DNA of 32,000 nucleotides from Ignavibacteriales bacterium (GTDB lineage Bacteria > Bacteroidota > Ignavibacteria > Ignavibacteriales > Melioribacteraceae): positions 128,636 through 160,635 of the forward strand of contig JAIOYW010000012.1 of assembly GCA_021740915.1 (NCBI GenBank). Reading direction: 5' to 3'. Below the pieces are notes generated by a model. It worked only from the letters and a program-made list of their open reading frames with translations. It ran no database searches and was not told where the DNA came from. The position numbers and the translations under genes were made by a program. The stretch's first letter is position 1. The number at the start of each line of letters is the position of its first letter. Positions 3,959-30,734 of this stretch are shown one piece after another.

Positions 3959-4014
3959 TAATTTTCAACTTTATTTATCAGGACAAGAATTTTCCAATAA
4001 ATAAATGGTGTAAA

Positions 4015-13640: not shown

Positions 13641-13674
13641 TGTTTAAAATAAACAAGGGGACCGAAGTCCCCTT
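13641..13674 (-). terminator. Strong GC hairpin with UUCG loop and U-rich tail (reads as an intrinsic terminator on the minus strand)
   Basis: Plus strand: aaggggac (13655-13662), cgaa, gtcccctt (13667-13674), a perfect 8-bp stem. On the minus strand the loop is UUCG and the hairpin is followed by GUUUAUUUUAAAC. No protein gene ends here, so it would terminate a small RNA or a leader transcript. Confidence 0.35.
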
Positions 13675-13858
13675 GAAATAGCCTTTCCATCTGTGGGCGG
13701 AATGGTTAATAAGGAATTGTGCAATTTACTTGTCCAGTTTAGACAGAACTCGAGCTGATTACTGATGGCAGCAGCCGGATGCAAAAAAACCTTAATTTCA
13801 AGATCAACGGCTTCGTGTGTTTGAAAAGTTTATTTTTCGATTTGTTAATTCCTCAAAG

Positions 13859-13878
13859 TGGGAAAACTTGGGAAAACT
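13859..13878. repeat. Perfect tandem duplication gggaaaactt x2, 30 nt upstream of the first gene of the large cluster
   Basis: Read directly: gtg GGGAAAACTT GGGAAAACTT cttcatg, then the ATG of the first permease at 13909. Function unknown; a possible operator or promoter element. Confidence 0.5.
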
Positions 13879-13908
13879 TCTTCATGTCGAATTTTGAAAC
13901 ATAAATAA

Positions 13909-16375: not shown

Positions 16376-17144
16376 GTCAAATATAGTTTTAGAAATCCAA
16401 AACCTCTCCTGTGGCTATGGAGGTAAACCGGTGGTTGAAAATTTTAGCCTGCAGGTGGAGAAAGGAGATTGCATAGCTATTACTGGTCCAAACGGTTCCG
16501 GTAAGAGTACTTTGTTAAAAGCTATTTATCAGCTCTGCGTTATTAATTCAGGCAAAATAATTTATAAAGGGCAATCTCTGAATGGCAGAACTGCTGAACA
16601 GGTGAAGAAAATGGGGATTTCCTACTTCATGCAGAAGAATGCTATTTTTAATAAGTTATCTGTAAAAGAAAATCTTGAAATTGCATATCCCGAAAATATT
16701 CTGGATAATTTGTTTAAGGAAGAATCAACTTTTACAAATAGCGCAGTTTCAAAGTTTAAACTTTTTTTCTTTAGGTTTTATTCGAAAATCCTTTTTTTTA
16801 ATCTTCGAGTTGACCTGAGTAGGCGAGTCAAAAAATACGTTGAAATACTTTGGACATTCTCAGATTTTTATAAATGGACAGACACTAAGAAAGCAGGCTT
16901 GCTAAGTGTCGGGCAACGTCAGCAATTAGCTCTTGCTATGCTTTATGCTCAGGAAGCAGATCTTTGGTTGCTTGATGAACCTACTGCGGGCCTGGATGCA
17001 GATAAATCTGAGATTTTCGTGCAGATGTTATTAAAACACTCATGGAAAACTTCAGATAACCCAAAGACTATTATCTTTGTTGAGCATAAAAATGAAATTA
17101 TAAATAAATTGGCGAATAAAATAATTAATTTTAAGGGTGAATAA
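16362..17144 (+). CDS. ABC transporter ATP-binding protein, LivF-like, with an extra hydrophobic/low-complexity insertion
   Basis: Walker A GPNGSGKSTLLKAIY, signature LSVGQRQQLALA, Walker B LWLLDEPTAGLD, H-loop FVEHK. The spacing between ENLEIA and the signature is about twice what I expect for LivF (see finding). Confidence 0.8.
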   Translation: MQITKSNIVLEIQNLSCGYGGKPVVENFSLQVEKGDCIAITGPNGSGKSTLLKAIYQLCVINSGKIIYKGQSLNGRTAEQVKKMGISYFMQKNAIFNKLSVKENLEIAYPENILDNLFKEESTFTNSAVSKFKLFFFRFYSKILFFNLRVDLSRRVKKYVEILWTFSDFYKWTDTKKAGLLSVGQRQQLALAMLYAQEADLWLLDEPTAGLDADKSEIFVQMLLKHSWKTSDNPKTIIFVEHKNEIINKLANKIINFKGE

Positions 17145-17145
17145 A

Positions 17146-18273
17146 ATGAAAAGAGCAATGAAACACATCGTCCTATTATTTTTTGTACTTTTTTTATTTA
17201 CGGATTGTAATAATGTAAATAAAGGCAAAGAAGTAATAAAAATTGGGGCCACTCTGGACTTTACGGGTCCAAATGCTGTATATGGAATTCAAGTAAAAGA
17301 AGGTATTGACCTTGCAGTGGATTTCATTAACGATACTCTAAAATATGGAAATAATGTTATCGAGGTGGATTATTTAGATTCAAAGAGTAACAGCAAAGAA
17401 GCCATCAACAATGCCAATAGATTTACCAGTATTGATAAGAAGAAATTTATTATTGGGGAAATCTCATCAAATGCAACAAAATCAATGATACCCGTTATTG
17501 AATCAAACAATGCTTTCCTTTTTGCTCCTGCCTCCTCTGGCTCAATACTTGCCGATATTAGTAATAATTTTGCAAGAAATTGGCCATCTGATGATATCGA
17601 GGCTGGTTATGCGGCGAAATTTGCATTAAATAATTTTAAAAGTAATAATCCCATTATTATATACGTAAATAGTTATTATGGTATCGGTTTGAAGGATAAA
17701 TTTAAGAATGTTTATATGCAGAATGGAAAACAAATTATGGACACATTGTCCTTTGAGGTTGATCAAACTGATTTTAAGTCTTTGATTTCGAAAGTTAAAG
17801 AAAAAAATCCTGATTGCATTTATTTAGCAGGAAATCCAAAAGAAATGGGAAGATTTATGAAACAATTATCTGAACAAAATTATAGGAACAATATTGTTTC
17901 CAATACGGGATTTTTACAAACTGATTGCCTTGGTATTGCGGGCATAGCGGCAAATGGAGTAGTAGTCCCAACCCCAAAATCATCTGATTTAAATCTAAAA
18001 TTGAATTCCGTAAAACGTTTTCAAAAAATGTTTTATAACACTTATAAAAAGGAGCCTACTCTTGTAAATGCAAATTCTTTTGATGCCATAATATTGATAT
18101 ATGACGCCATACAAAAAGTAGGTCAGGATGCTATTAAAGTAGCTAGGGACATTCGCAACAAAAAGGGATTTGAGGGAGCTTCGGGAATTTCCAACTTTTC
18201 AGATGGAGAAATTGAGCTGGAGATTATGTATGTCAGAATAGAAAATCAAAAACCAGTTGAAATAACGGAATAG
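17146..18273 (+). CDS. Periplasmic/lipoprotein amino-acid-binding protein (Peripla_BP_6, LivK-like)
   Basis: The track ORF starts at GTG 17137. The ATG at 17146 follows AAGGG. Signal plus lipobox: MKRAMKHIVLLFFVLFLFTDC. Family pattern: IKIGATLDFTGPNAVYGIQVKEGIDLAVDFIN. Confidence 0.8.
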   Translation: MKRAMKHIVLLFFVLFLFTDCNNVNKGKEVIKIGATLDFTGPNAVYGIQVKEGIDLAVDFINDTLKYGNNVIEVDYLDSKSNSKEAINNANRFTSIDKKKFIIGEISSNATKSMIPVIESNNAFLFAPASSGSILADISNNFARNWPSDDIEAGYAAKFALNNFKSNNPIIIYVNSYYGIGLKDKFKNVYMQNGKQIMDTLSFEVDQTDFKSLISKVKEKNPDCIYLAGNPKEMGRFMKQLSEQNYRNNIVSNTGFLQTDCLGIAGIAANGVVVPTPKSSDLNLKLNSVKRFQKMFYNTYKKEPTLVNANSFDAIILIYDAIQKVGQDAIKVARDIRNKKGFEGASGISNFSDGEIELEIMYVRIENQKPVEITE

Positions 18274-18274
18274 T

Positions 18275-19279
18275 ATGAATCTTCCCAAAAGAACCAACCT
18301 ATCAAGGGAGATTATTAAAAGGCAAGATGTTATTGATTTTCTAAATTCAAATAAACCATTAAATTATTTGTTTGATATGCCTTTTAACCTTCCTCTGGCT
18401 CGAATAGAATTATACAAGAGGACCTACTTTGGAATCGGAAACACTGAATGTTATAAAATCAACTTGAAAAATAACAATCAGCTCTACTTAAAAATGGAAT
18501 ATCTTAATTCAATGGGCAACACACATTATTCCAGATTTTGGTTGATCTATCTGTTTTTGTGTGAGGCTTTTGGGATAATCAGCCCTAATAAAACCAAAAT
18601 TCTTGAAGTCACCAGTGGAAGTTCAGGAATTGCATTGGCGAGAGCAGCTAATATATTTCAATATTTCACAACAATTATCGTACCAAACATCCTTCCTCAG
18701 ACACGTACTTCACCAATGAATAACAAGTATGTTAATGTTATTTCTGTCCCAGGCTATATTCCAGAGTGTATTGACAAACTTAGGGTTTTGAATAAGGAAA
18801 CAATCTACTTTGCAACAAATCATTCCGAAGAAAAGTCAGACACGATCATAAAAGTCTTTTCAAGAATTGCACATGAAATCATAAATGAACATATTGATCC
18901 CGATTATTCCATAATTGCACTTGGTAATGGCACCTCAACACTAGCAATTGCAAAGACTCTAAAGTTGCATAATCCCAATACTCAGGTATGGACATATAAA
19001 CCTGACTTTGAACGGAAACCTGACGATATAGTATTTGGCTTAATCGTGCCAAATATCGATTTCAGACACTTAAAACCGGCGCTGTCCTATGTGGATAAAG
19101 TTTTATTTACAACTGGTGTTGACCTTAGCGAAATTAAAAATTATTTTCAGTTCGATACTGAAATATCGAATCTTGGCTTTTCCTCTCTTTACGGGATTTA
19201 TTTTGCGATTGATCTAGCTAAATCGGTTCAGGAAAAAAAAATATTAACTTTAGGTTATGACAAAATTGATAGATATTAA
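18275..19279 (+). CDS. Cysteine-synthase/tryptophan-synthase-beta fold (PALP) protein, apparently lacking the Schiff-base lysine
   Basis: By-eye alignment to CysK. LKMEYLNSMGNTHYSRFW aligns with the K-containing xVESxNPxxSVKxRI segment. ILEVTSGSSGIALARAA aligns with EPTSGNTGIALA. IIALGNGTSTLAIAK aligns with the GVGTGGT phosphate loop. The start lies 1 nt after the binding-protein stop. Confidence 0.6.
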   Translation: MNLPKRTNLSREIIKRQDVIDFLNSNKPLNYLFDMPFNLPLARIELYKRTYFGIGNTECYKINLKNNNQLYLKMEYLNSMGNTHYSRFWLIYLFLCEAFGIISPNKTKILEVTSGSSGIALARAANIFQYFTTIIVPNILPQTRTSPMNNKYVNVISVPGYIPECIDKLRVLNKETIYFATNHSEEKSDTIIKVFSRIAHEIINEHIDPDYSIIALGNGTSTLAIAKTLKLHNPNTQVWTYKPDFERKPDDIVFGLIVPNIDFRHLKPALSYVDKVLFTTGVDLSEIKNYFQFDTEISNLGFSSLYGIYFAIDLAKSVQEKKILTLGYDKIDRY

Positions 19280-19289
19280 AAAAGGTGCC

Positions 19290-22200
19290 ATGGAAAATAT
19301 TTACCGGTTTTATGAAGACATCCTTTCGAAATTAAAACTTTCTATAATCGGTTATGAACATATTTTAAAGGAGGTTAATGATTTTTTTTATTTGCTCACC
19401 TCTTACGCGGATTTTAAAGATAATAAAAACATTAGATTCATTTCATATTCGCTCGCGAAATTAAAGAATGCCAGCAATTGGGAAACCGAGTTATTGTCAA
19501 GTGACTTTTTCTTTCATGCTTTTCAAGAAGACCAATGTCTATATGAGTTAAGTTTTTATAATTACCTAAAATCTCAAAAAGGCATAAAATTTAGCACTAT
19601 AACTTCACTGAGTAATTTATTAGCGACAGACTTAAGTTTTCGAGTTGGTTGCATTGATAGCAATAATAAGAAATTTGAGTATGACGCACAGAATAAATTA
19701 TTATCCTTTTATATACCAAAGTCGGCAGTCTTTCTCGATGTTTTCTCCGATTCTCATGAAAATTATAAAAAAAATATAGATTCGAAGTCCGTTACAGAAT
19801 TTTTTGTTGAACAGGATAAAAGTATTTTTAAAAGAAAAAGTCCAAAGAGTGATTCTGAAATAGAGAAGCTAAGTAAAAAATTATATAAAGAAGGATTCAA
19901 TTTAGTTGGAATTGACTCGCTGGAAGTTTGTCTGATAAACTATTTAACGAATTTCATCGAGGAAAACCCAGAACTTTTTGTCCATTTTGATGATGCTGAA
20001 GAAAAGGAAAAACATATCGTTTACTGGGTTTTTCAAATTGTTTCAATTGCTTTTATTGCAAATATTTACAATTGCTGGGTTGAATATTTGCCAGCTATCG
20101 TTGGTATTATTAACAGGGAATCTGGTGCCGAGAACGCAGGAACGGCACCAGAAAACGTTAAGACTGAATACAGAAATTTGGGCTCATTTATTGTTGGATA
20201 TTCAGTAGGTTATGAGTTAACTAAAGACGAAAGAACGATATCTAAGCTAATTTCTGAAAGAGTAAGTTATGCAATAGGAGGAGAGTATTTAAAGAAAATT
20301 TTAACAGAAATTGAAGATTTTTCCCTGAATGCGGCTATTTCACGTATTATTTTATCTAATACTGCTCACCACCTCATTAGTCACTGCGCTCCATATTGCA
20401 CAACCGATAAGGTTATAAAAAGATTAAATTTCACTTCACTTACGGCTGATCAACTTAACTCAGTAATTAAAATGGTTAATCTTTATACGCTTTATGAAAA
20501 TTCGCGCAACGAATTTGTCGCCGGATTAAATAATAATAATCAACCTGTCGCTTTGCGTTTCTATAAGGACATAATTCAACCACTTGCTGAAAATTGCCTT
20601 CTACTGGATACTATTGCGGCAAGCGAGCAAATAACCTGGGGAAAAAAGGAAAATGGGAAAAATATTAATGACATTCAAGGAATAAGTCGTTTAAGGTTTC
20701 GGATATTCTACCATTGCAATCTCTTCGGTGAGAATAAATGGGAAAAAGGAAATGCCTGCTCAAAGAGAATTGAAAACAATTCAGTTGAGATATGCACTAA
20801 AAATTGTGAAATCAATAATTCAGGTAATGAGATTTATGAAGAAACCTATTTAGAAGCACCTGGTGATTACAGAGAAATGGTTGCTTATTACAAATACTTC
20901 AATGAATATAATAGCTCAAATATCCCAAGTAGTATATATTGTATTCATAGTTTACCTTATTTCAGATACTATAATCAGGATTCATTTCATAATGGGAATG
21001 TGGAATATACGTGTGAAAATGACATTGAAATTTTGGTTCGTGGTACACAGGGTATGCAATCGATTTATTCAATTCTTGAAAATTTTATTCGTAATACAGC
21101 AAAACATGCAAGTAAAAGTGTATTAGAAGACATTTTCCATTTGGATATAATAATAAAACTAAAAAAGGGGGAAACTTCTGATAATATTAATATGGAGCTT
21201 ATATCCAATATCCCAACGTTTAATAATGTGTGCACAGAGAGTGAATTAAGCGCGAATGAAAATAAAAACACCCCGTATGCAAAAATTTTGTTAGAGTCAA
21301 CTAAAGGTATTTACCCAACCACAATCCAGCGCGGAATAGCTGACATGAAAATTAACGGTGTGTTTCTTAAAATGCAGGAGATCACACAAAGAAATCTGGA
21401 AAAGGCGATAAAAGTGGGATATTACCCTAATAAACAGAATAACAAATACTCCATTGCCTACAGTTTTGTTCTTAAGAGACCACAAAAAATCGCATTTGTC
21501 GGCGATTTTAATAAACCCAACAATTACACCACTGATTTCGAAACATTCGGGATAAGAATATTTACTGATTTAAATGATGAACTGTATAGTTTTAAATTTG
21601 TTGTTTTCACAAGCGAATTTTTTAAAATAAGGAAGGATACTATTCTTGCTTCCGGAGACGGTGTAATGAATGAATGGTTATACCGCCTGCCCAGAAGAGT
21701 AATAATATTTGGCGATGATGTAAGTGTGGTTGAAAATATAATAAATAATTTCAACATTAGCTCTAAACGATTTATTATCACGAATGAAAATCCTCTACGA
21801 GGATCAAATTTTGAAACCCTAAAAACCTGCTGGCAAATATGGCTGAAAAGATGGTTGGGAGCTAAAGAAAGGATTTTTCTTAAGGTTGTTCCGGATGAAA
21901 AAACGTCCACAAACATTTTTGATAATCTTACTGATAAAAATATTTTTTCACAAGATTCGAAAATTAAATTAAGGAATATTTCGTTTTTGCGGCACGAAAA
22001 TACGATCGCAGACGATAAAGAAAAAAAAGCAAATTGGTTAAATGAGGATTGGTTTCTTGAAAATATTGAAAAAAACAATAAAGACTTTAATGTTATTTGG
22101 GGAAATAGAGATACTGTCAAATCTGAAAATTCCGATTTTCATTATGATTTATCCGAGACGGGTCTCTTAAAAATACTCATATTTGAGGAAAGATTAATTG

Positions 22201-22715
22201 AGTCATTGGGAAATAAGCAATTTACATACCCCAGTAAGAGCGATTTCCCTTTCCCTGGTGCTGGTTCTTCAAAACAGGTAGAACGAATTAAATTATACCA
22301 ACGCGATTATTTAGATGTGTCCATCGCAGCCAATTTGTATATAGTAACTCATTTTAATGATTTACAAATAAAATCAGTAAAGACAAATAGAAATTGTAAA
22401 TTTTATTCTAAAAATAATGAAATAGAGATCATGTCAGAGGATATGAACAATAAAAAAGTTGCAATTAAAGATTTTGATGTTTTAATAATTCACAGAACTC
22501 AACTTAATAATTTGTTTGAAAAAGATAATAAGAACGATATTTTTAATATTTTAAAGAAAAATTTCCCGATGATATATATTTCAACCGGAGGCGGCAGCAT
22601 TACCGATATTGAAGATAAGACTAAATTTAAGTTTGGTTTAATATCTTTAAATCAACTTCTAAACCATTTAACTCAAAGTGTAATGAAACATTCATTCAAA
22701 ACATATATTACTTAA
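19290..22715 (+). CDS. Large (about 1140-1152 aa) histidine-kinase-like ATPase protein with Cys/His-rich insert and C-terminal pseudo-receiver domain; otherwise uncharacterised
   Basis: The track start is ATG 19257, overlapping the upstream gene by 23 nt. The alternative ATG 19290 is preceded by AAGGTG. A NarX/DesK-style N-box YSILENFIRNTAKHASK lies at nt 21071-21118, followed by HLDIIIKL...MELISNIP...RGIADMKINGVFLK. A His-rich candidate phospho-site region ISRIILSNTAHHLISH lies near nt 20349-20387. HC-x12-C-x10-C-x3-C lies at nt 20711-20806. The C-terminal receiver-like fold has acidic residues replaced: LKILIFEERLIE ... FDVLIIHRTQL ... PMIYISTGGGS. Confidence 0.55.
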   Translation: MENIYRFYEDILSKLKLSIIGYEHILKEVNDFFYLLTSYADFKDNKNIRFISYSLAKLKNASNWETELLSSDFFFHAFQEDQCLYELSFYNYLKSQKGIKFSTITSLSNLLATDLSFRVGCIDSNNKKFEYDAQNKLLSFYIPKSAVFLDVFSDSHENYKKNIDSKSVTEFFVEQDKSIFKRKSPKSDSEIEKLSKKLYKEGFNLVGIDSLEVCLINYLTNFIEENPELFVHFDDAEEKEKHIVYWVFQIVSIAFIANIYNCWVEYLPAIVGIINRESGAENAGTAPENVKTEYRNLGSFIVGYSVGYELTKDERTISKLISERVSYAIGGEYLKKILTEIEDFSLNAAISRIILSNTAHHLISHCAPYCTTDKVIKRLNFTSLTADQLNSVIKMVNLYTLYENSRNEFVAGLNNNNQPVALRFYKDIIQPLAENCLLLDTIAASEQITWGKKENGKNINDIQGISRLRFRIFYHCNLFGENKWEKGNACSKRIENNSVEICTKNCEINNSGNEIYEETYLEAPGDYREMVAYYKYFNEYNSSNIPSSIYCIHSLPYFRYYNQDSFHNGNVEYTCENDIEILVRGTQGMQSIYSILENFIRNTAKHASKSVLEDIFHLDIIIKLKKGETSDNINMELISNIPTFNNVCTESELSANENKNTPYAKILLESTKGIYPTTIQRGIADMKINGVFLKMQEITQRNLEKAIKVGYYPNKQNNKYSIAYSFVLKRPQKIAFVGDFNKPNNYTTDFETFGIRIFTDLNDELYSFKFVVFTSEFFKIRKDTILASGDGVMNEWLYRLPRRVIIFGDDVSVVENIINNFNISSKRFIITNENPLRGSNFETLKTCWQIWLKRWLGAKERIFLKVVPDEKTSTNIFDNLTDKNIFSQDSKIKLRNISFLRHENTIADDKEKKANWLNEDWFLENIEKNNKDFNVIWGNRDTVKSENSDFHYDLSETGLLKILIFEERLIESLGNKQFTYPSKSDFPFPGAGSSKQVERIKLYQRDYLDVSIAANLYIVTHFNDLQIKSVKTNRNCKFYSKNNEIEIMSEDMNNKKVAIKDFDVLIIHRTQLNNLFEKDNKNDIFNILKKNFPMIYISTGGGSITDIEDKTKFKFGLISLNQLLNHLTQSVMKHSFKTYIT

Positions 22716-22720
22716 ATAAT

Positions 22721-23428
22721 ATGAAAACAATAATTATTTTTACAAGAGGTACTGACGACAGTGAATTTAATCATTGGTATGTTCAAGGAAAAACAAAAAT
22801 AGTTGAGATTGCAACAGATACCTGTGAAAAACCAAACGTTTATATTGCAAAATATAACCAGAGTCAGTTTGATCCTCAATCACCCGGTAATAATATTATT
22901 AGACAATTAATAATTGCAAGGGCTTACAATGATTTTCATGATGATGTGAAAAAGTACTTTAAGGACAAGGAGTTTGAGAATGCCCTGATTCTTTACCATA
23001 ATCAGAGTGAAGGTTTCTTGCAATACATTAAAAGCCTAAAGGCTTTAAAATATCAAAAATATAGCAGTACTGAGAACATAAATATTCCGCCGAAAAAAAT
23101 TAATACTTCTTCATACCCCCTTGACAAACTTTTGAATTCTATTCAGATGGAATCAGTATGTGATTTTACTGTTGAATTTGATGAGGTTTGGAATTCTTTT
23201 ATGGGAACCTTGAAATTAAGTGCCACCCTAGAATTTTTACACAAGTGTTTAGGGAAAGAAATTGATAGATTAGTCCTTACAGGGGCTGGTATTAATTTAG
23301 ATTATGAGGTAAATGAAAATAGATCCATCGTTCTTTTAATATCTGAGTTTCAAAAAGGATTTGACATTTCAGCATTAAAAGAATTGCGGGATGCCTTGCT
23401 GGAGATTGCAATAAGGATAAATAAGTGA
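22721..23428 (+). CDS. Hypothetical protein, 235 aa, no recognisable motif
   Basis: Intact ORF 5 nt after the preceding stop, same strand, with N/K/I-rich composition like its neighbours. The N-terminus MKTIIIFTRGTDDSEF suggests a beta-strand-first alpha/beta fold, but I cannot assign a family. Confidence 0.55.
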   Translation: MKTIIIFTRGTDDSEFNHWYVQGKTKIVEIATDTCEKPNVYIAKYNQSQFDPQSPGNNIIRQLIIARAYNDFHDDVKKYFKDKEFENALILYHNQSEGFLQYIKSLKALKYQKYSSTENINIPPKKINTSSYPLDKLLNSIQMESVCDFTVEFDEVWNSFMGTLKLSATLEFLHKCLGKEIDRLVLTGAGINLDYEVNENRSIVLLISEFQKGFDISALKELRDALLEIAIRINK

Positions 23429-23467
23429 ACTCTATCCAAACTAATTTTCACCCTGAGGAGTAGAAAT

Positions 23468-25777
23468 ATGGTTTATTATTTTATATCAGATAATGAGCAG
23501 CATATAGGCGAGATTGTTTCTAAATTAGATTTTGTAAATAAAAAGAATGGAAAAGAATATTTAACTTTCAATACATCGAAATATTGCTATGGTTTTATTC
23601 AGCTTATTTCGGAAATATGGAAACAATACATTGAGAACCCCGATGCTGTTTTTATTATAAATACCGAATTGAAATTCACTGAAAGCGATGAAAGAGCAAA
23701 ATATATTGGTGTGGAATGTGCCATGGCTCTGCGGTTGATGAATAAGTTCCGTTACGAGAAAGAGATTTTCCTTTTCGGCTATTCGCCTCAGTCTTTCATT
23801 GAAAAGACTACTGAACGATGTTTTGAAACTTTTGGGTTTGTATATCAACAATTGCCATTTGAAGATGAAATATTGTCATGTTCAATAAAAACAATCTCCA
23901 ATAGTAAAAATATCAACTATAGTGAATTACCTGAGTATCATTTAATCGGCCTGCTGGATGACCACTTTGATCATTTTGACCGAAAAATAGAAGCTACTTT
24001 GAATTATTATTCATCGGATATTTGCAATATTATATCATACCCTTATTCATTGAATAAATCGCTCAATGAAAATTTTCCCGATATAAAAAAATGGCTTGCC
24101 TGCCATGATATATTGGATTTGTTCCTTCTGGATTTGAATTATGAAAAAATTGGTAATCATTCATCTACTAGCACACAAGATACTGACAAACAAGGATTAA
24201 ATGTACTGCATTATATTGATTCAATAGGTTATCAAACACCAGTCGCAATTTTATCAGTGTCTAAGGATGTTGAAGTAATAAAAAATATCACATTGGGATA
24301 TCATCAACTAATAAACGATTTTATTCCAACCGAATCAATCACGAACAGCCATTCTAAAATAGATATCAAAAATATTGATAATGTTGTAAAAGCAATCATT
24401 AAGTGTTTAAAAGATGCTGGTGCTAAAAGAAATAAACTGGGAATATTATTTACACATGGTACCGACACAATGGCCTGGACTTTAAGTTTACTGCACTACA
24501 GTCTCAAATTGCCAAAATGTAATATAGTTTTAACAGGTTCACAAATTCCACTAAAAGCCGAATTTTCACCCTCTGATGCTCCGGCTAATATCATAGCAGC
24601 TTTGTATTATCTTAATCAATTTGTACCCCCGCAAATAGGTGTTTCATTCGATATGGGGAAAAAATTTTTTAATAATAATCTTAAAAAAGTGCGGATTTGG
24701 AATGAAAATGCCTTTGATGGGCAGGTTAATGCCCAGTTCAATTGGCAGGATATAGAAACTAATCATAAAACTTTATTATTTAACAATTGTCTTGATAAGC
24801 TACTATTACTGACAACCGGAGGAACAATTGCCATGAGATCCGGACCTTGTTCAACAGGTCGGCCTGATGCAAGTGCAATGGAAAAGTTCTTTGACTCATA
24901 TGAGGCGAAATACAGAGTCCCGGAATCTGCCAAATTCCCTTTTTACAAGGATTTTGAACCATTATCAATTGTAAATATTGATTCTTCAGAGATGAATCCT
25001 GATGTTTATATTAAAATACTTAAAACTTTAATTGATCTCAATAATAAATTTGATTTTGCTGAGAAAGTAGAATCCGATTTCCGCTGGGATGTTTACCCAA
25101 TTCAATGTTCTCCTTTTATGAGGGAGGAGGATTATTATATTTACACCAAACATTATAAAACGGTAGACGATAAAGGGAATGTCGCCATTACTAAAAGCAA
25201 TCCAATTGTTTATGTTCTTCTAGGCTATGGCGCAGGTAATCTGCCATTTAAGAGCAATGAAGACAAAAACCAGGACGGCACAAAAAAATTTGATAAAGAA
25301 AATTATAGCCCTATGAACTTTGTTCGCGAAGTTATTCAAGATGGCAATATTGTAATACTTACTTCGCATGTACAACAAGAAACGCCTGATCTGGACTATG
25401 ATGTGTCAGTTAAATATATTGAGGAAGGAGTTCTTTTTGGTGGCAATATGACCCTCGCGGAAATAATGATAAAATGTGCTTATTTGTTAGGGAAAGTAAA
25501 TAATAAGGGATTGAAAAATCTTCAATTCCTAAAGACTTCGATCATGGCCGGAGTTGGTTTCAGGGGTAAATCTTCACGTATTAAATATATTAATCTTTTG
25601 CGTAGATTATTGAATGATAAAAAAAGGATCGAGATGAAGAAACATTACAACTATATTTTGCCGGACACCAATTATTTTAAGGAGTTACCTTTTGAGGACT
25701 ATAGTATTGAAAATGAGGTTAAGAAAGGTTCAAAATCTATCATTTATGATTTAATTAATTCGGTTTCCTATGAGTAA
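23468..25777 (+). CDS. Multi-domain protein: N-terminal receiver-like domain, near-canonical receiver (REC) domain, and asparaginase/GatD-like module with permuted motif order
   Basis: GAGGAG lies 8 nt upstream of the ATG. REC-like core at nt ~23930-24340: YHLIGLLDDHFD, DLFLLDLNYEK, GLNVLHYIDSIGYQTPVAILSVSKD. Asparaginase motifs: ILFTHGTDTMAWT...CNIVLTGSQIPL (HGTDTM = nt 24455-24472), then LLLLTTGGTIAMRSG (nt 24812-24835) ...NIDSSEMNPD. The C-domain follows: VYVLLGYGAGNLP...GNIVILTSHVQQ...GVLFGGNMTLAEIMIKCAYLLG. Confidence 0.7.
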   Translation: MVYYFISDNEQHIGEIVSKLDFVNKKNGKEYLTFNTSKYCYGFIQLISEIWKQYIENPDAVFIINTELKFTESDERAKYIGVECAMALRLMNKFRYEKEIFLFGYSPQSFIEKTTERCFETFGFVYQQLPFEDEILSCSIKTISNSKNINYSELPEYHLIGLLDDHFDHFDRKIEATLNYYSSDICNIISYPYSLNKSLNENFPDIKKWLACHDILDLFLLDLNYEKIGNHSSTSTQDTDKQGLNVLHYIDSIGYQTPVAILSVSKDVEVIKNITLGYHQLINDFIPTESITNSHSKIDIKNIDNVVKAIIKCLKDAGAKRNKLGILFTHGTDTMAWTLSLLHYSLKLPKCNIVLTGSQIPLKAEFSPSDAPANIIAALYYLNQFVPPQIGVSFDMGKKFFNNNLKKVRIWNENAFDGQVNAQFNWQDIETNHKTLLFNNCLDKLLLLTTGGTIAMRSGPCSTGRPDASAMEKFFDSYEAKYRVPESAKFPFYKDFEPLSIVNIDSSEMNPDVYIKILKTLIDLNNKFDFAEKVESDFRWDVYPIQCSPFMREEDYYIYTKHYKTVDDKGNVAITKSNPIVYVLLGYGAGNLPFKSNEDKNQDGTKKFDKENYSPMNFVREVIQDGNIVILTSHVQQETPDLDYDVSVKYIEEGVLFGGNMTLAEIMIKCAYLLGKVNNKGLKNLQFLKTSIMAGVGFRGKSSRIKYINLLRRLLNDKKRIEMKKHYNYILPDTNYFKELPFEDYSIENEVKKGSKSIIYDLINSVSYE

Positions 25778-26042
25778 GATAATGCCATTGGATGTTCTGT
25801 CTTCAATTAAAGGGGCAAATCCTTCAAAAGCTGTTGAAGAGCTTTTTATTAATGTAAAAAATGCAGTGAGTGAAATTGAAGAAAAGTCTGAATTTGAAAC
25901 TCATGATCAAATAATGACTGTTGAAGTCTTACGGGAGGACAAGGTTAATAAGTCTCCGGAGGATGAGATTGAAATTATTAAACGGAATTTTCCTTTACAA
26001 AAGGATAGTTATTTGGTAGTCCCGAGAGTAATTGAAGAATAG
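25770..26042 (+). CDS. gatC: Asp/Glu-tRNA amidotransferase subunit C (GatC)
   Basis: 90 aa, the right size for GatC. C-terminal GatC pattern VEVLREDKVNKSPEDEIEIIKRNFPLQKDSYLVVPRVIEE (LRED...VPxVI). The ATG overlaps the upstream stop by 8 nt, and the gene sits directly upstream of gatA. Confidence 0.7.
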   Translation: MSKIMPLDVLSSIKGANPSKAVEELFINVKNAVSEIEEKSEFETHDQIMTVEVLREDKVNKSPEDEIEIIKRNFPLQKDSYLVVPRVIEE

Positions 26043-26046
26043 AGAA

Positions 26047-27456
26047 ATGGAATCAGAAATAAAGAGAATACATAATCTTCTTTCGAGCGGAGAAATATCC
26101 TGTAAAGACTTGATAGGAGAAAAACTTTTATTGCTCGAAAGAAATGAGTACAATACTGCTAACCTTATATTAAAAGAATATGCCACTCAATTAGCAGAAA
26201 AGGTGGACAAAAGAATACAAGCCGGCAAAAAAATTGGCTTGCTTGAGGGAATTCCCTTTGGAATAAAGGACGTTATTTTATTAAAGGGACATAAAGCTAC
26301 TGCAAGTTCAGATATGTTGAAAGAATATATTGCACCTTATTCGGCAACAGTAGTGCAAAAACTACTGGATGTCGGTGCAATACCTATAGTTAAAGAAAAC
26401 TGCGATAGCTTTGGACATGGAAGCACCAATGAAAACACGATTTTTGGGTCTGTGAAAAATGCTTTGGATTTACGAAAAGTTGCCGGTGGTTCAAGTGGTG
26501 GCAGTGCAGTCAATGTTGCAAAAGGCATTACTGTTTTTAGTATAGGTGGCGATACCGGCGGCTCCATCAGACAACCATCGGGATATAATAAAGTTTACGG
26601 GCTAAAACCTACTTACGGCAAAGTTTCTCGTTATGGTATGATGGCTTACGCCTCATCTTTAGATACTATTGGTCCTATTGCAAACTCGATTGAGGATATA
26701 AGAATATTGCTGGACATTATCTCCGGTGAAGATATTCATGATATGAATACATATGCGGGCACAGTACTTCCTAAGAAAAAATTCGAATCCGAATCAGATC
26801 CTAAAAATTTTACGGTTGGTTACTATGTGGATTTCGTAAAAAGTAATTTTCTACATCCGAAATTAAAAACTGAATTTAATGATTTGATAGAAAAACTAAA
26901 ATTCGAGGGTGTCGAAATTGTTGAGTTAAATTTATTAAATACGGACCTTTTAGTTTCGATCTATTATGTTTTAGCAATGGCTGAAACCGCTTCAAATTTG
27001 GCGCGTCTTGACGGAATAAATTATGGAAAGCGAAGTGATTCCAGAAATTTAAAGGAGTCATACTCTGAAACGCGCTCTGAAAACCTTTCAGAAGAAACAA
27101 AAAGGAGAATAATCGGAGGTAATCAGGTCCTTTCCCATGGTCATTCTGAGGATATTTATATTAAAGCGATTCATTTACGAAATAATTTAAAAAAAGCTTT
27201 CTTTAATGACCTGCAAACGGTGGACATAATTCTCTCCCCAGTTTCAACAGTTCTCCCTCCGAATATCGGGGAAAGTTTACATGATCCTTACGCGATGTAC
27301 CTGTCAGATATTTATACGGTCGGTTTTAGTCTTAGTGAATTGCCTGTCCTAAACGTACCTTTATTCCTGGAGACCGGATTGCAGATTGCCTCAAATAAAA
27401 ATCAGGAAGCAATGATTTTTAAATTTGCTAATTATCTTAAACAAATAAGCTTATGA
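26047..27456 (+). CDS. gatA: Asp/Glu-tRNA amidotransferase subunit A (GatA, amidase-signature glutaminase)
   Basis: The track start is TTG 26032. The ATG at 26047 gives MESEIKRIHNLL. Amidase signature with a complete Ser-cisSer-Lys triad context: GIPFGIKDV, GGSSGGSAVNVAKG, GGDTGGSIRQPSGYNKVYGLKPTYGKVSRYGMMAYASSLDTIGP. Confidence 0.9.
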   Translation: MESEIKRIHNLLSSGEISCKDLIGEKLLLLERNEYNTANLILKEYATQLAEKVDKRIQAGKKIGLLEGIPFGIKDVILLKGHKATASSDMLKEYIAPYSATVVQKLLDVGAIPIVKENCDSFGHGSTNENTIFGSVKNALDLRKVAGGSSGGSAVNVAKGITVFSIGGDTGGSIRQPSGYNKVYGLKPTYGKVSRYGMMAYASSLDTIGPIANSIEDIRILLDIISGEDIHDMNTYAGTVLPKKKFESESDPKNFTVGYYVDFVKSNFLHPKLKTEFNDLIEKLKFEGVEIVELNLLNTDLLVSIYYVLAMAETASNLARLDGINYGKRSDSRNLKESYSETRSENLSEETKRRIIGGNQVLSHGHSEDIYIKAIHLRNNLKKAFFNDLQTVDIILSPVSTVLPPNIGESLHDPYAMYLSDIYTVGFSLSELPVLNVPLFLETGLQIASNKNQEAMIFKFANYLKQISL

Positions 27457-28880
27457 AAGCAGAAAAACTTAATGAACTCCTTGAACAACATGACTTAGAG
27501 ATAGTGATTGGATTGGAGACTCACATACGTTTAAATACCAATTCAAAATTATTTTGTTCCTGTGAGAATAAAGAAGCAGAAGTTCCAAATTCTAACATTT
27601 GTCCGATTTGCACCGGGCAAATGGGAGCATTGCCATCTCTCAATAAAGAAGCTGTAAGTAAAGCCATTATTTTCGGAAAAGTTATTGGGTCATCTTTCGT
27701 CAATAAATTAATTCACTGGGATAGAAAACATTATGAGTATCCTGATTTACCTAAAAACTATCAGTTAACTCAACACAAAAAACCAATTATTTCAGACGGA
27801 TTGATTAAATGTTATAGAAATGATGGTACCATTTTTACGGTTAATATTGAACAAGTTCATATTGAAGAAGATGCCGCAAAATTAATTCATGACGGAGAAA
27901 TCACATTAGTCGATTTTAATAAATCTGGTGTGCCTTTAATTGAAGTTGTTACCCAGCCGTGTATTCATAATATTACCGATATTCCATATTATGCTCAGAC
28001 ACTTCAACGTATAGTCCAGATTTATAATATTTCTGCTGCAAATCTTGAAAAGGGTGAATATAAATCGGATGTCAGTGTTTCACTGCGTAAAAGAGGGGCA
28101 AACGAATTAAATCCACGTGTGGAAATAAAAAATCTGAATTCATTCAGGTTCATGACCGACGCTGTACATACTGAAGTTGTAAAACAAATTGACTTCTTCA
28201 TTAAGAACAATTCTTTCAATGGGGAGATGACTACTGTATTGTTTGAGCCAACATCAAAGAATACAAAAACCATGCGCAAAAAGGAATTTGCCGCCGATTA
28301 CCGTTTTGCAAAAGAGCCGGATATTCCATCAATTGATATTTCAGATGCTATATTAGAGATTGATATAGACTATGAGGTTTTTCCATTTAATATCGAAACC
28401 GTATTAATTGACCAAGGAATCCGTCCTCAGGACGCAAAATATTTCACTTCAGATATAAAAAGGGCGATTGTCTTTACCGAGATAAACAGACGATTAAACA
28501 ACCCCAAGCTTGTTGCTAAAAATCTCTTTAACCTCATCAAGTCTGAGGATTACGAAAAAATAATTAATATTATTCCTTTTTCTGTTGTGCTCGATTTATT
28601 TTTTAAAGATAAGATTTCCCATAATAAATTAAAACAGATCATTGAAAACCTGCTTAAAAACAATGATTTTGACTTCCAGACTTTTTTAGATACCAATCAA
28701 GTAGATTTTTCGAAAGTTGACCAGATTATTAATAAAATTCTTTTTGACTATAATGAAATCGTTACTCAGATTAATTCGGGTGAATTAAATAAAATCAGTT
28801 TCTTAGTAAGTGCAGTACTTAAAATAACGGGGAAAGAAATTTCCGGTAAATATATAAAAAATAAAATTCAGGAATTGATA
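27453..28880 (+). other. gatB: GatB module of the fusion ORF (cradle domain, helical domain, YqeY-like tail)
   Basis: Motifs listed for the parent ORF. The module ends at ...KNKIQELI, just before the linker ISGEAPLHNSEKHHKSSNLAAFDNKRTLSFEENIIVKE (nt ~28881-28995). Confidence 0.85.
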
Positions 28881-30734
28881 ATTTCCGGGGAAGCGCCTCT
28901 TCACAATTCAGAAAAACACCACAAATCAAGCAATTTAGCAGCTTTTGATAATAAGAGGACGCTTAGTTTTGAAGAAAACATTATTGTGAAAGAAAAGTAT
29001 CGGACACATCTCGTCACCGATATTTCTTTATTAAATATAGGTGATACGGTAACTTTAGCAGGGTGGATTTCTAGCATAAGAGATCACGGGGAGATAGTCT
29101 TTGTTGATTTGCGTGATTCAAGTTTTGAAATCTTCCAAATCAGGTTGACTAAAAGTAATATTGTAAATATTGATTACTATTCTAAAATTCCTGTGGAGTC
29201 AGTTGTTTCAGTTCATGGCAAAGTGATTAAGCGCAAATCTGATGATGTCAACTCCAAAATAAGATCAGGTGAATTAGAATTAGATGCCACTGCCTTCGAA
29301 ATACTTAACTTATCAAAACAAATTCCATTTGAAATCAGAAGATCAACCAAAATCAAAGAGGATTCGAGATTAATCTATAAATTTTTAGACCACAGAAACT
29401 CGGAAATTAGACATATTATTATTAATCGTCATCTTGTGATTCAATTTATAAGAAATTATTTAAGTAAACTTGGGTTTATTGAAATTGAAACGCCAATTCT
29501 ATCAGCTGGCACAGAAGAAGGAGCCAAAGAATTTATTGTACCTGCCCGGAAGTTTGTCGGAGCTTATTATGCACTCCCCCAATCACCACAGCAATATAAA
29601 CAGATGCTGATATGTAGTGGATATGATAAATATTTCCAAATAGCACGTTGCTTCCGAGACGAGGATTCCAGAGGGGACCGGCAGCCTGAGTTCACGCAAT
29701 TTGATTTGGAAATGGCATTTGCCAGCATGCAGGATATTATTAGTTTGAACACGACCTTGTTTAATGATTTGGTGTCTTCGGTATATGGGACCAAGTGGAA
29801 GCTTTTTCCTTTTAAGGTAATTACTTATGAAGAAGCTATTCTGAAATATGGCACCGATAGACCGGATTTAAGATATGGTCTTGAAATGGATGACATTACT
29901 GAGATTGTAATGAAAACAAATTTCAAGGTTTTTACAGATTCCATCAGACTTGGAGGAATAGTAAAATGTTTAAAGATTGATAAAGGCAGTAAAAAAAATG
30001 ACTTGACCCGTACACAAATTGAAAACCTGACTGAAATTGCCAAACAAAATGGTCTTGGCGGATTGGCTTATATAATTTTAAACAATGGAGAATTACAATC
30101 ACCCATAAAAAAATATTTGGGAGAAAGAGCATGTGATGAGATCATCAATAAGATGAAAGCTGTTGATGGTGATATATTATTTTTCTCTGCGGCAATGCCG
30201 AAGATCGCAAATAAAGCTTTGGATGCAGTCAGACAGGAATTGGGAAAAATTCTCGGTCTGGTAAAGCATAAGGAATTACACCCAGCTTGGATCGTTGATT
30301 TTCCTCAATTTGAGAAAACAGATGAAGGAAAATGGACTTTTTCGCATAATCCCTTCTCTATGCCAAGAATTGAGTACCTGAATGACCATTTGAATGCAAC
30401 AAATATAGAGAATATTATCGCCCAACAATATGACTTAGTCGTTAATGGTCATGAGATTGGCGGCGGTTCCGTAAGATCTCATAAAAGAGAAATTTTGGAA
30501 GCGACCTACAAAATTATGGGATATGATTCGTTGAAGATACAAAAAAGCATTGGTCACATGCTAAACGCATTTCAATATGGAACTCCTCCACATGGGGGTA
30601 TCGCCTGGGGAATTGATCGTTTAATGATGGTACTTGAGTCCAAATCTTCTATTCGTGAAGTCATTGCATTCCCCAAAACCGGCTCAGGTGAAGATTTGCT
30701 ATTTGGAAGTCCAAGCAAAAAGAATCAAAAATGA
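27453..30734 (+). CDS. gatB/aspS: Single ORF fusing full-length GatB (amidotransferase subunit B with YqeY-like tail) to full-length bacterial-type aspartyl-tRNA synthetase
   Basis: ATGA overlap with the gatA stop. GatB half: IGLETHIRLNTNSKLFCSC, CPICTGQMGALPSLNKEAV, HIEEDAAKLIH, GVPLIEVVTQP, PRVEIKNLNSFRFMTDAVHTEVVKQ, tail ISFLVSAVLKITGKEISGKYIKNKIQELI. AspRS half: RTHLVTD...GDTVTLAGWISSIRDHGEIVFVDLRD (OB fold), FIEIETPIL (motif 1), LPQSPQQYKQML, CFRDEDSRGDRQPEFTQFDLEMAF (motif 2), GTDRPDLRYGLE plus a GAD-type insertion, HNPFSMP, GGGSVRSH, GTPPHGGIAWGIDRLMMVL (motif 3). Confidence 0.9.
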   Translation: MKAEKLNELLEQHDLEIVIGLETHIRLNTNSKLFCSCENKEAEVPNSNICPICTGQMGALPSLNKEAVSKAIIFGKVIGSSFVNKLIHWDRKHYEYPDLPKNYQLTQHKKPIISDGLIKCYRNDGTIFTVNIEQVHIEEDAAKLIHDGEITLVDFNKSGVPLIEVVTQPCIHNITDIPYYAQTLQRIVQIYNISAANLEKGEYKSDVSVSLRKRGANELNPRVEIKNLNSFRFMTDAVHTEVVKQIDFFIKNNSFNGEMTTVLFEPTSKNTKTMRKKEFAADYRFAKEPDIPSIDISDAILEIDIDYEVFPFNIETVLIDQGIRPQDAKYFTSDIKRAIVFTEINRRLNNPKLVAKNLFNLIKSEDYEKIINIIPFSVVLDLFFKDKISHNKLKQIIENLLKNNDFDFQTFLDTNQVDFSKVDQIINKILFDYNEIVTQINSGELNKISFLVSAVLKITGKEISGKYIKNKIQELIISGEAPLHNSEKHHKSSNLAAFDNKRTLSFEENIIVKEKYRTHLVTDISLLNIGDTVTLAGWISSIRDHGEIVFVDLRDSSFEIFQIRLTKSNIVNIDYYSKIPVESVVSVHGKVIKRKSDDVNSKIRSGELELDATAFEILNLSKQIPFEIRRSTKIKEDSRLIYKFLDHRNSEIRHIIINRHLVIQFIRNYLSKLGFIEIETPILSAGTEEGAKEFIVPARKFVGAYYALPQSPQQYKQMLICSGYDKYFQIARCFRDEDSRGDRQPEFTQFDLEMAFASMQDIISLNTTLFNDLVSSVYGTKWKLFPFKVITYEEAILKYGTDRPDLRYGLEMDDITEIVMKTNFKVFTDSIRLGGIVKCLKIDKGSKKNDLTRTQIENLTEIAKQNGLGGLAYIILNNGELQSPIKKYLGERACDEIINKMKAVDGDILFFSAAMPKIANKALDAVRQELGKILGLVKHKELHPAWIVDFPQFEKTDEGKWTFSHNPFSMPRIEYLNDHLNATNIENIIAQQYDLVVNGHEIGGGSVRSHKREILEATYKIMGYDSLKIQKSIGHMLNAFQYGTPPHGGIAWGIDRLMMVLESKSSIREVIAFPKTGSGEDLLFGSPSKKNQK
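28996..30734 (+). other. aspS: AspRS module of the fusion ORF (OB-fold anticodon-binding domain, class II core, bacterial GAD insertion)
   Basis: Begins at KYRTHLVTD, equivalent to the natural N-terminus of bacterial AspRS. All three class II motifs and the QSPQ and GGGS(V/I)R(S/I)H signatures are present. Confidence 0.85.

Follow-up and report, generated by a model that had tools for sequence, protein, structure and literature searches.

The subject of this analysis is an open reading frame (ORF) in a window of 32,000 nucleotides (nt), the whole stretch of DNA that we analyzed, from an assembly of an Ignavibacteriales bacterium (GCA_021740915.1, contig JAIOYW010000012.1, positions 128,636 to 160,635 of the forward strand). 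The ORF encodes a protein of 769 amino acids (aa), its reading frame runs without interruption, and a GAGGAG ribosome-binding site lies 8 nt 5' of its ATG. Its product carries the motifs of the class-1 asparaginases, which are amidohydrolases of Asn and Gln that form homo-oligomers with intersubunit active sites. The canonical class-1 chain proceeds from a strand bearing TGGT and a lid, through a DS(S/T) loop and a helix, to a strand bearing HGTDT, and then by way of TGSQ and a Lys to a linker and the C-terminal domain (C-domain). In the 769-aa protein this collinear order is not kept, the catalytic elements instead appearing in the order HGTDT, Lys, TGGT, DS, and C-domain. The layout of the ORF, with positions counted in the window, is as follows:

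23468–25777, plus strand, whole ORF, 769 aa: predicted pseudo-receiver, divergent receiver domain (REC), permuted class-1 asparaginase unit, and C-terminal tail.
23468–23857, plus strand, aa 1–130: N-terminal flavodoxin-like (beta-alpha)5 "pseudo-receiver", from DSSP on an AlphaFold2 model; no family match.
23936–24367, plus strand, aa ~157–300: divergent REC, from alignment to the REC of homologs P0008 and P0011 and from Foldseek matches to PhoP and RcpB.
24425–24763, plus strand, aa 320–432: segment B, the "second half" of the asparaginase N-terminal domain (N-domain), placed first; matches positions 74–168 of a canonical hidden Markov model (HMM), 47–172 of the Pfam profile, and 75–183 of the structure 4q0m.
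24791–25060, plus strand, aa 442–531: segment A, the "first half" of the asparaginase N-domain, placed second; matches canonical HMM positions 4–78 and 4q0m residues 17–76.
25085–25567, plus strand, aa 540–700: asparaginase C-domain, with GYGAGN at aa 586–591; sub-threshold match to Asparaginase_C and match to canonical HMM positions 231–314.
25568–25774, plus strand: clade-specific helical C-terminal tail with an F698-R699...Y motif, from alignment and the AlphaFold2 model.

Segment B contains HGTDT (aa 330–334, nt 24455–24469), TGSQ (aa 356–359), SD (aa 369–370), and K407 (nt 24686–24688). Segment A contains TGGTI (aa 450–454, nt 24815–24829), a flexible lid loop, and DSS (aa 505–507, nt 24980–24988), and T453, as judged by alignment, is the equivalent of the nucleophile. 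The sole TGGTI therefore lies about 120 aa behind HGTDT. A sequence-only reading of this stretch had placed HGTDTM at aa 330–335 (nt 24455–24472) and TTGGTIAM at aa 449–456 (nt 24812–24835), and that is where we find them. It had also stated that no HGTDT follows TGGT and that no TGGT precedes HGTDT; this is borne out, since GG[TS], G[TS]D[TS], DS[ST], TGSQ, and GxGxGN each occur just once in the protein.

The Pfam model for the asparaginase N-domain (PF00710) recognizes the protein with 78 bits and E=8.7e-22 (cut-off 22.5) in two stretches, the stronger of which places aa 289–419 on profile positions 47–172. The C-domain model (PF17763, Asparaginase_C) matches aa 582–679 with 28.5 bits, under its cut-off of 34.6, and matches the homologs P0008 and P0010 with 50.1 and 53.4 bits. 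We also built a canonical HMM from 44 type I asparaginases of ~330 aa, in which TGGT falls at about position 11, DS at 54, and HGTDT at 84. It matched the native protein with E=5e-43 in three non-collinear stretches (aa 320–418 on positions 74–168, aa 444–529 on positions 4–78, and aa 582–680 on positions 231–314). The motif pattern is far beyond chance by either measure.

The two N-domain pieces are complementary, non-overlapping parts of the canonical profile, and the TGGT half leads straight into the C-domain. The same crossed, three-piece pattern was obtained with the canonical HMM for P0033, P0010, P0011, P0199, P0203, and P0008, stand-alone proteins of ~400 aa among them. A phmmer search of the sequences of the Protein Data Bank (PDB) likewise gave a crossed match to the Pyrococcus furiosus enzyme 4q0m (aa 323–432 on residues 75–183, aa 473–529 on 17–76, and aa 621–680 on 251–310). 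BLASTP of P0012, the best-scoring canonical relative, against the stand-alone permuted protein P0033 returned crossed high-scoring segment pairs, with P0012 93–341 on P0033 5–331 (leaving a large gap at the TGGT half) and P0012 3–72 on P0033 115–191.

We then reversed the swap in silico by placing aa 440–531 ahead of aa 323–439. The de-permuted construct matched PF00710 in a single stretch covering positions 1–172 with 84.9 bits, whereas the native order had given two stretches and 76 bits, and it matched the canonical HMM as one domain over positions 4–314 with 151 bits. The match to 4q0m improved from E=6.3e-13 to 3.2e-19, and the construct aligned collinearly to asparaginases in the PDB, including residues 3–247 of 9ufq in a single stretch.

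These results separate a swap from a duplication, that is, from two tandem and partly degenerate asparaginase N-domains of which the first lacks TGGT and the second HGTDT. Such a tandem would account for the report of PF00710 in two stretches and for the weak alignment of aa 289–322 to profile positions 47–80, the helix that normally precedes HGTDT. Stretches 4–78 and 74–168 of the canonical HMM are, however, complementary rather than overlapping, which argues for a swap and not for two degenerate domains. Moreover, stand-alone members of the family total only 385–414 aa, the size of a single asparaginase, and begin 8–15 residues before HGTDT, so that there is no space for a second N-domain. 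The segment just before HGTDT in our protein corresponds in homologs to the last helix of the receiver domain and not to a decayed TGGT half. The sequence-only reading had held that the halves were swapped rather than duplicated, and had named two separate degenerate domains beforehand as the finding that would overturn it. Complementary coverage, the size of the stand-alone members, and the de-permutation test rule such domains out, and we consider a tandem extremely improbable. A search for a duplication intermediate of the form A-B-A-B-C was also fruitless, as the representatives that matched in four stretches were canonical eukaryotic lysophospholipase-type enzymes with insertions. Even more remote is an assembly or frameshift artefact that joined fragments in the wrong order, for although the source is of metagenome type and the NCBI entry (P0001) is a partial protein, the reading frame is unbroken and the identical order with near-constant spacing (~122 aa) recurs across independent assemblies of NCBI, JGI, ENA, and Logan origin, in 90 proteins altogether, a number that excludes an artefact.

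What has occurred is a circular permutation of the N-domain within a multidomain chain, from A-B-C to B-A-C, and not a permutation of the whole enzyme. From the sequence comparisons we hold it to be almost certainly real and conserved.

A word-indexed search retrieved 11 long homologs with 28–100% identity, all in the permuted order, from a Cloacimonetes metagenome-assembled genome (MAG; an identical, partial protein), a Tannerella MAG, a Heimdallarchaeaceae MAG, and metagenome contigs. A profile of the catalytic region run against 1.84 billion cluster representatives gave a bimodal outcome: ~55–60 representatives matched in one collinear stretch with E from 1e-182 to ~1e-42, and below them canonical asparaginases matched in three stretches with no more than 150 bits. 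By this sequence criterion the permuted proteins form a discrete clade of ~55–60 clusters at 50% identity. When the permutation was sought in homologs, as the sequence-only reading had proposed, it was found in 90 proteins in which HGTDT lies 117–139 aa (mostly 120–125) before TGGT, and 93 of the fetched proteins had the canonical order with TGGT 72–122 aa (mostly 72–108) before HGTDT. A scan of GTDB genome contigs revealed no permuted member among the matches listed (80 loci), which were canonical asparaginases matching the HGTDT half only. Database names for the family are generic, for example "asparaginase domain-containing protein" or "L-asparaginase/Glu-tRNA(Gln) amidotransferase subunit D." A visual impression that the canonical protein P0012 shares the clade-specific C-terminal tail had no BLASTP support and was dropped.

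All of the class-1 catalytic residues are present in the 769-aa protein (T453, T332-D333, K407, and S506). We examined their conservation in an alignment of 86 permuted catalytic domains with 24–80% identity to our protein (median 30%). T453 and T332-D333 served as selection criteria for this alignment. Among the residues outside the selection criteria, D505-S506, D370, N374, G397, and G418 were present in 86 of 86 sequences, K407 in 85, and S369 in 83. Because the whole catalytic set is conserved across the clade, the two halves are likely to rebuild the usual active site; the pattern strongly suggests as much, being hard to explain otherwise.

An AlphaFold2 model of the full 769 aa, made from an 11-sequence alignment and without templates, had a mean predicted local distance difference test score (pLDDT) of 80 and a predicted template modeling score (pTM) of 0.83. 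Both halves of the N-domain and the C-domain were mostly at pLDDT 80–97 (segment B at ~80–95), and the secondary-structure elements were those of the class-1 N-domain in swapped order, each present once. The spots of low confidence were aa 453–463, right after the nucleophile Thr, the loop at aa 360–362 after TGSQ, and surface insertions; in addition, the final ~20 residues of the C-terminal tail were disordered. In the model aa 453–463 would correspond to the flexible lid of known asparaginases. The likeness to asparaginases and GatD that had been claimed from the motifs was recovered by Foldseek against the PDB, which placed GatD (1zq1_A) at the top with E=7.9e-10, together with archaeal asparaginases of type I (5ot0, 9ufq/9ufr, and 1wls, with E of ~1e-9 to 1e-8 and a target-normalized template modeling score of ~0.6), followed by the type II enzymes of E. 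coli and Erwinia. A score of ~0.6 is roughly what would be expected from a sequential aligner that superposes one half of the N-domain plus the C-domain. Conservation and the model together strongly suggest that both Thr motifs converge on one active site.

We judge it quite probable, from the same two lines of evidence, that the 769-aa protein is an active Thr-nucleophile amidohydrolase that releases ammonia from free L-Asn and/or L-Gln. It could in principle be a non-catalytic pseudoenzyme whose asparaginase fold senses a ligand or serves as a scaffold, and the lack of an obviously conserved Tyr in the lid loop and the fusion to signaling domains would fit that idea. K407 and D505-S506 are nevertheless invariant or nearly so in 86 sequences whose median identity is 30%, which is the pattern expected of an active enzyme, and T453 and T332-D333 lie within motifs present in all 86, making a pseudoenzyme very unlikely.

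Among known enzymes the closest in sequence are the type I L-asparaginases of P. furiosus (4Q0M), Thermococcus kodakarensis (5OT0), T. sibiricus (9UFQ), and P. horikoshii (1WLS) and AnsA of E. coli, which share with our protein TGGTI, DSS, HGTDT, TGSQIP, the Lys, GxGxGN, and the two-domain alpha/beta fold, and which are also among the best fold matches. The window protein differs from them in its B-A-C instead of A-B-C order, its clade-specific helical C-terminal tail, and its N-terminal signaling domains, and the NCBIfam type I model gives it only 72 bits against a cut-off of 260. The sequence-only reading had called the output asparaginase/GatD-like. The asparaginase part of this description stands, but in sequence the protein is closer to archaeal and bacterial type I enzymes than to GatD. 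GatD (1ZQ1, 2D6F) shares the asparaginase fold and is the top Foldseek match, and a further likeness is that the hydrolase gene of the window is linked to a tRNA-dependent amidotransferase, which supports a similarity of working rather than membership. Against membership, the GatD models TIGR02153 and NF003217 give the window protein 49.8 bits (cut-off 324) and 48.2 bits (cut-off 310), Pfam finds no GatD_N domain (PF18195) in it, the protein is permuted, and its host is bacterial. Furthermore, the window holds no GatE partner, the neighbors being GatC, GatA, and GatB fused to aspartyl-tRNA synthetase (AspRS), with the GatE models matching the GatB part weakly. On these sequence grounds the 769-aa protein is not a GatD.

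The current classification of class 1 comprises types I and II and a new short type s, and it makes no mention of a permutation (PMC12951835). Type s, from Rhodospirillum rubrum, is likewise a recent architectural variant of class 1 that keeps the active site, but it lacks the C-domain and has the canonical order, whereas the permuted clade keeps the C-domain and has its N-domain permuted (PMC12951835). The full-text literature yielded nothing relevant on circular permutation of class-1 (non-Ntn) asparaginases. Judged by sequence, the clade would represent a permuted type within class 1, an arrangement for which we found no earlier description.

The N-terminal region of the protein appears to contain two receiver-like units. 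The REC-like motifs LLDDH, LLDLN, and ILSVS that the sequence-only reading had listed are present at aa 162, 220, and 261, and its remarks that the conserved REC Lys is not evident (the protein has DFIP at aa 284) and that a further receiver-like domain lies upstream both agree with our results. In the AlphaFold2 model aa 1–130 form a (beta-alpha)5 unit, with DSSP assigning strands at 2–7, 30–35, 61–65, 100–104, and 124–128 and helices at 10–19, 43–54, and 80–90, and aa ~157–300 form a second such unit with an acidic pair (D164/D165), a putative acceptor (D222), and S263. Pfam found no match in aa 1–321 at E<=1, PF00072 included. The REC does align to the Pfam-recognized receivers of P0008 (E=1e-7, 32.5 bits) and P0011 (E=1.1e-4, below cut-off), and D164, D165, and D222 are retained by at least 90% of the aligned sequences. 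Receivers, namely PhoP and RcpB, appeared among the Foldseek matches at ranks 32 and 46. The Lys is absent from our protein and its closest relatives and present in P0004, P0008, and P0011. Homologs and model together thus point to a REC domain in the 769-aa protein. Its architecture, a REC followed by an enzyme with a kinase-fold protein encoded nearby, is that of response regulators with enzyme outputs such as CheB, PleD, and RpfG, from which it differs in that its REC is divergent and lacks the Lys, that it has an extra pseudo-receiver, and that the kinase is unrecognizable by sequence profiles. We found no description in the literature of an asparaginase as a response-regulator output.

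A separate observation concerns the pseudo-receiver, of which aa 12–130 (nt 23501–23857) resemble the N-terminus of a 779-aa protein at 13270–15609 of locus L008 (33% identity, blastp E=2.7e-4). That protein, encoded downstream of gatB::aspS, has in turn a 549-aa relative encoded in locus L007, upstream of the stand-alone enzyme there. The N-terminal pseudo-receiver may be a docking domain shared within the system.

The asparaginase gene belongs to one tightly spaced string of plus-strand genes (13909–30734) that comprises livH/M/G/F-type ATP-binding cassette (ABC) transporter genes, Peripla_BP_6, a pyridoxal-phosphate (PLP)-dependent enzyme, the 1152-aa protein, the 235-aa protein, the asparaginase, gatC, gatA, and gatB::aspS:

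13909–19279, plus strand: Liv-type ABC transporter (two permeases, two ATPases, and one Peripla_BP_6 binding protein) and a PALP enzyme.
19257–22715, plus strand: 1152-aa partner, in which aa 341–752 (nt 20277–21512) form a predicted divergent histidine-kinase core with dimerization/phosphotransfer (DHp) and catalytic/ATP-binding (CA) parts.
22721–23428, plus strand: 235-aa protein, between the kinase-like and asparaginase genes.
25770–26042, plus strand: divergent gatC, 90 aa; TIGR00135 E=1.4e-5, 25 bits against a cut-off of 47, and Pfam GatC E=0.019.
26032–27456, plus strand: gatA, 474 aa; Pfam Amidase E=2.5e-111, and TIGR00132 429.6 bits.
27453–30734, plus strand: gatB::aspS fusion, 1093 aa; GatB_N and GatB_YqeY followed by a bacterial-type AspRS (OB fold, class II core, and GAD).

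As had been noted from the sequence, the asparaginase ORF overlaps gatC: its stop codon and the ATG of the next ORF share 8 nt (tcctATGAGTAAgat; ATGAGTAA). In the window and in L001, L007, and L008, four independent loci, the asparaginase gene lies directly upstream of gatC-gatA-gatB::aspS. In all four the divergent gatC keeps its position, and the asparaginase gene appears, from the sequences, to be translationally coupled to the cassette. The whole block of large protein, ~240-aa protein, permuted asparaginase, gatC, gatA, and gatB::aspS recurs in L001 (a Tannerella MAG, with 41% identity) and in L008 (55%). In L007 the enzyme is a stand-alone protein of 402 aa that lacks a receiver, and its gene overlaps a gatC-like gene by 13 nt and is followed by gatA-gatB::aspS. 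Since this receiver-less enzyme is still linked to gat genes, it is the catalytic module, and not the receiver, that goes with the transamidation genes. The amidase-signature motifs of the window GatA look intact by eye (IKD, GGSSGGS, and GGDTGGSIRQPS).

The gatB::aspS fusion is also found at 14120–17434 of L001, where it is conserved at ~60% identity, and, with the same domain layout, at 10886–14206 of L007 and 9903–13184 of L008; it is in effect a covalent transamidosome. Among the NCBIfam models there is one for a bifunctional AspRS/GatC protein and none for GatB-AspRS. No tRNA gene was detected in the window, and nothing was found downstream of aspS. Elsewhere in the window (1880–3958, 4015–5796, and 7385–9202) are a conventional TPR-HisKA-HATPase_c kinase and two proteins that bear C-terminal sorting domains of type IX secretion, the two proteins being consistent with a Cloacimonadota/Bacteroidota-like host of the FCB group.

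The 1152-aa protein had no match in Pfam (HisKA and HATPase_c included), NCBIfam, or PADLOC, and a profile of its family had none among PDB sequences; its database homologs carry no annotation. It does contain motifs reminiscent of histidine kinases, SNTAHHLISH (aa 367), ENFIRNTAKH (aa 608), and RGIADMK (aa 692). BLASTP and phmmer tie it to large proteins encoded upstream of the asparaginase gene in L001, L003, L005, L008, and L010, and its motifs are kept in the partners from L001, L005, L008, and L010, the family showing an H-box-like S-R-N-M-S-H-N-x-G-S-H, an N-box E-N-x-I-R-N-S-A-K-H, and G-x-x-E-M. N28, H31, S35, H36, and E-N-x-I-R-N-x-x-K were invariant in a five-sequence alignment of the partners (A3). 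An HMM of this family recovered only the five loci used to build it, and hhalign of the N-box to the bona fide histidine kinase elsewhere in the window gave a weak match (29% probability).

An AlphaFold2 model of aa 341–748, of moderate confidence (pLDDT 62, pTM 0.67), shows a helical hairpin (helices 2–40 and 57–83) followed by an alpha/beta domain. Nearly all of its top 50 Foldseek matches in the PDB were histidine kinases or their ATP-binding domains, including HK853, CpxA, RetS, WalK, and CheA P4, with E from 1e-4 to 1e-2 and probabilities up to 1.00. On the strength of the model, the 1152-aa protein is a predicted, cryptic histidine-kinase-like protein and a conserved, fast-evolving partner of the asparaginase. 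It is the most plausible regulator of the receiver-asparaginase fusion.

By eye, aa 975–1128 of the 1152-aa protein (nt ~22179–22640) have a receiver-type (beta-alpha) look, with IFEERL...IIHRTQL...ISTGGG, and the equivalents in L001, L008, and L010 read IDERxx...IHLxxL...SGRG; this stretch appears to have a conserved His at the position of the phospho-acceptor Asp of receivers. The 235-aa protein had no match in Pfam, NCBIfam, or PADLOC. A weak homolog occupies the same position in L001 (248 aa, E=6e-4), as does a gene of similar size in L008 (256 aa).

Some permuted asparaginases are fused to other enzymes. In the Bacteroidales MAG proteins P0202 and P0203 (L009, 6001–7914) the permuted domain is preceded by an N-terminal NadE with an intact SGGKDS P-loop. 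The joining of an ammonia-using ATP-pyrophosphatase to an amide hydrolase is a standard design of amidotransferases, and glutamine-dependent NAD synthetase likewise joins NadE to an amide-hydrolyzing domain. There, however, that domain is of the nitrilase type and N-terminal, whereas in P0202 and P0203, which are only relatives of the window protein, it is a permuted asparaginase fold at the C-terminus. The fusion may represent a novel type of NAD synthetase that depends on Gln/Asn. In L009 its neighbor on the opposite strand is a GMP-synthase-C/ATP_bind_3 gene.

In ~12 other representatives, the Heimdallarchaeaceae protein among them, there is a C-terminal domain of ~400 aa with motifs like those of class-I glutamine amidotransferases (GATase), namely ICL(G/S)HQ, MLHGDEV, and FQFHPEL (Pfam GATase E=1.3e-3, below cut-off). 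These members, which include P0010, P0043, P0054, P0057, P0060, P0061, P0066, and P0070–P0072 (and L014, 6001–8394), are 740–840 aa long and have no receiver domain. As judged by sequence, they would have two putative amide-hydrolyzing domains in one chain. The literature yielded nothing relevant on GatB-AspRS fusions or on asparaginase-NadE fusions.

A further arrangement is seen on a contig of a WOR-3 MAG (L013), where a gene whose product matches Proteasome and, weakly, Response_reg lies two genes upstream of one for a REC::permuted-asparaginase (genes 936–2141 and 2641–4434). One signaling input might drive several receiver-fused enzymes there.

We propose that the ORF encodes a class-1 (type I/GatD-like) L-asparaginase whose N-domain has become fixed in evolution as a circular permutant, in which the HGTDT...Lys half and the TGGT...DSS half would reassemble into the usual active site. 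The enzyme would deamidate free L-Asn and/or L-Gln to give ammonia. Its activity would be gated by the kinase-like partner, which would phosphorylate D222 or act by docking, and the gated enzyme would supply amide nitrogen, as ammonia, to an amidoligase. In the window the amidoligase would be the machinery for tRNA-dependent transamidation of Asp to Asn (or Glu to Gln), much as GatD serves GatE in archaea. Taken as a whole, this is the explanation that we favor, with some reserve.

Its parts are not equally secure. Control of the amidohydrolase by the kinase-like partner through the REC is possible, and we advance it tentatively. We are more hesitant still about the role as a GatD-like ammonia donor, or regulated amide-nitrogen supply, for the transamidosome, which is argued by analogy and which we rank first among the candidate roles while thinking it rather less probable than its opposite. 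We propose a regulated role in amide-nitrogen supply because the gene is coupled to gatC-gatA-gatB::aspS and because the clade includes fusions to NadE and to a GATase1-like domain. To our knowledge, no asparaginase fold other than that of archaeal GatD serves an amidotransferase as its glutaminase, and it is this precedent that makes a GatD-like role attractive.

Several observations weigh against the proposal. The GatA of the operon appears catalytically intact, so that a second glutaminase for GatB is not obviously needed. Adjacency to gatCAB::aspS is limited to the closest subclade, 4 of 13 loci, and is missing from the other nine; one of the members lies among ribosomal-protein and DNA polymerase III genes (L095), another lies beside an aminotransferase gene and overlaps MTHFR by 4 nt (L096), and others are in REC-rich loci of unknown function. 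As for the gating, the kinase-like partner was detected in only 5–6 of the 13 loci and in one of them (L010) stands next to a stand-alone enzyme that has no REC, and, as far as the sequence tells, the REC of the 769-aa protein is undetected by Pfam and the conserved Lys is missing in its subclade.

The strongest competitor is an asparaginase/glutaminase that serves catabolism or nitrogen scavenging and that a two-component system controls in response to nutrients. The Liv-type ABC transporter would import an amino acid or amide, the kinase-like protein would sense it, and the REC-gated enzyme would deamidate it for carbon and nitrogen; the gat neighbors would reflect co-regulation or the sparing of Asn (Asn-tRNA being made on the tRNA while free Asn is burnt), with no channeling of ammonia. 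Liv-type transporters occur not only in the window string but also near the homologs in L003 and L005, a gene for a PLP-dependent enzyme is adjacent, stand-alone members have plain metabolic (L096) or housekeeping (L095) surroundings, the seemingly intact GatA gives GatB its own source of ammonia, and among solved structures the nearest relatives are free-standing asparaginases of type I and not GatD. Catabolism alone does not, on the other hand, explain why the tight coupling to gatC is kept in four loci, one of them with a REC-less enzyme, and the fusions to NadE and to GATase-like domains indicate amide-nitrogen transfer over plain catabolism. We consider a purely catabolic role unlikely and rank it just below a transamidosome-coupled supply.

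Less credible, and third in our ranking, is an effector of stress or biological conflict, in which the kinase-like sensor would activate REC-fused effectors, depletion of Asn and Gln would arrest growth, and an accessory gatCAB::aspS module would travel along on a mobile island. Some neighborhoods have this flavor: L013 combines the REC::proteasome-like fusion with a HEPN/NTase pair, L012 has an M48 peptidase with TerB, vWA, and an FHA kinase, L014 has a REC together with DUF87/HerA, a STAND-like AAA_16 protein, and M48, GmrSD and a transposase-associated gene flank L007, and L005 has a HepT/NTase pair. The partner proteins, moreover, are fast-evolving and without family assignment. Nevertheless, PADLOC had no match for any of four proteins, no toxin-immunity logic is evident, and the literature search gave no precedent; nor does the idea generalize, given the members in housekeeping and metabolic contexts. 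We therefore regard a conflict effector as quite improbable.

Regardless of which role is correct, class-1 asparaginases have been studied intensively for leukemia therapy and for acrylamide mitigation, and their classification assumes one chain topology. The permuted clade shows that the fold tolerates a circular permutation inside one of its domains, and it offers protein engineers a natural template with new termini beside the active site and the lid loop. The permutation also explains why these proteins are annotated merely as "asparaginase domain-containing," and finding permuted asparaginases requires searches that are aware of domain order. More broadly, the clade might amount to a bacterial version of GatD, a regulated ammonia donor that is portable between amidoligases (the fused GatB::AspRS in the window, NadE in Bacteroidales relatives, and a GATase-like domain in Heimdallarchaeia and others) and that in the window is switched on by the cryptic kinase through the receivers. 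We regard this wider idea as doubtful, but if it were true, the synthesis of Asn-tRNA would be phospho-regulated and would involve a third kind of glutaminase/asparaginase subunit. The coupling to GatB::AspRS, the NadE and GATase-like fusions, and the cryptic kinase suggest unexplored, regulated routes for the delivery of amide nitrogen, and they raise the possibility that indirect tRNA aminoacylation is under phospho-control.

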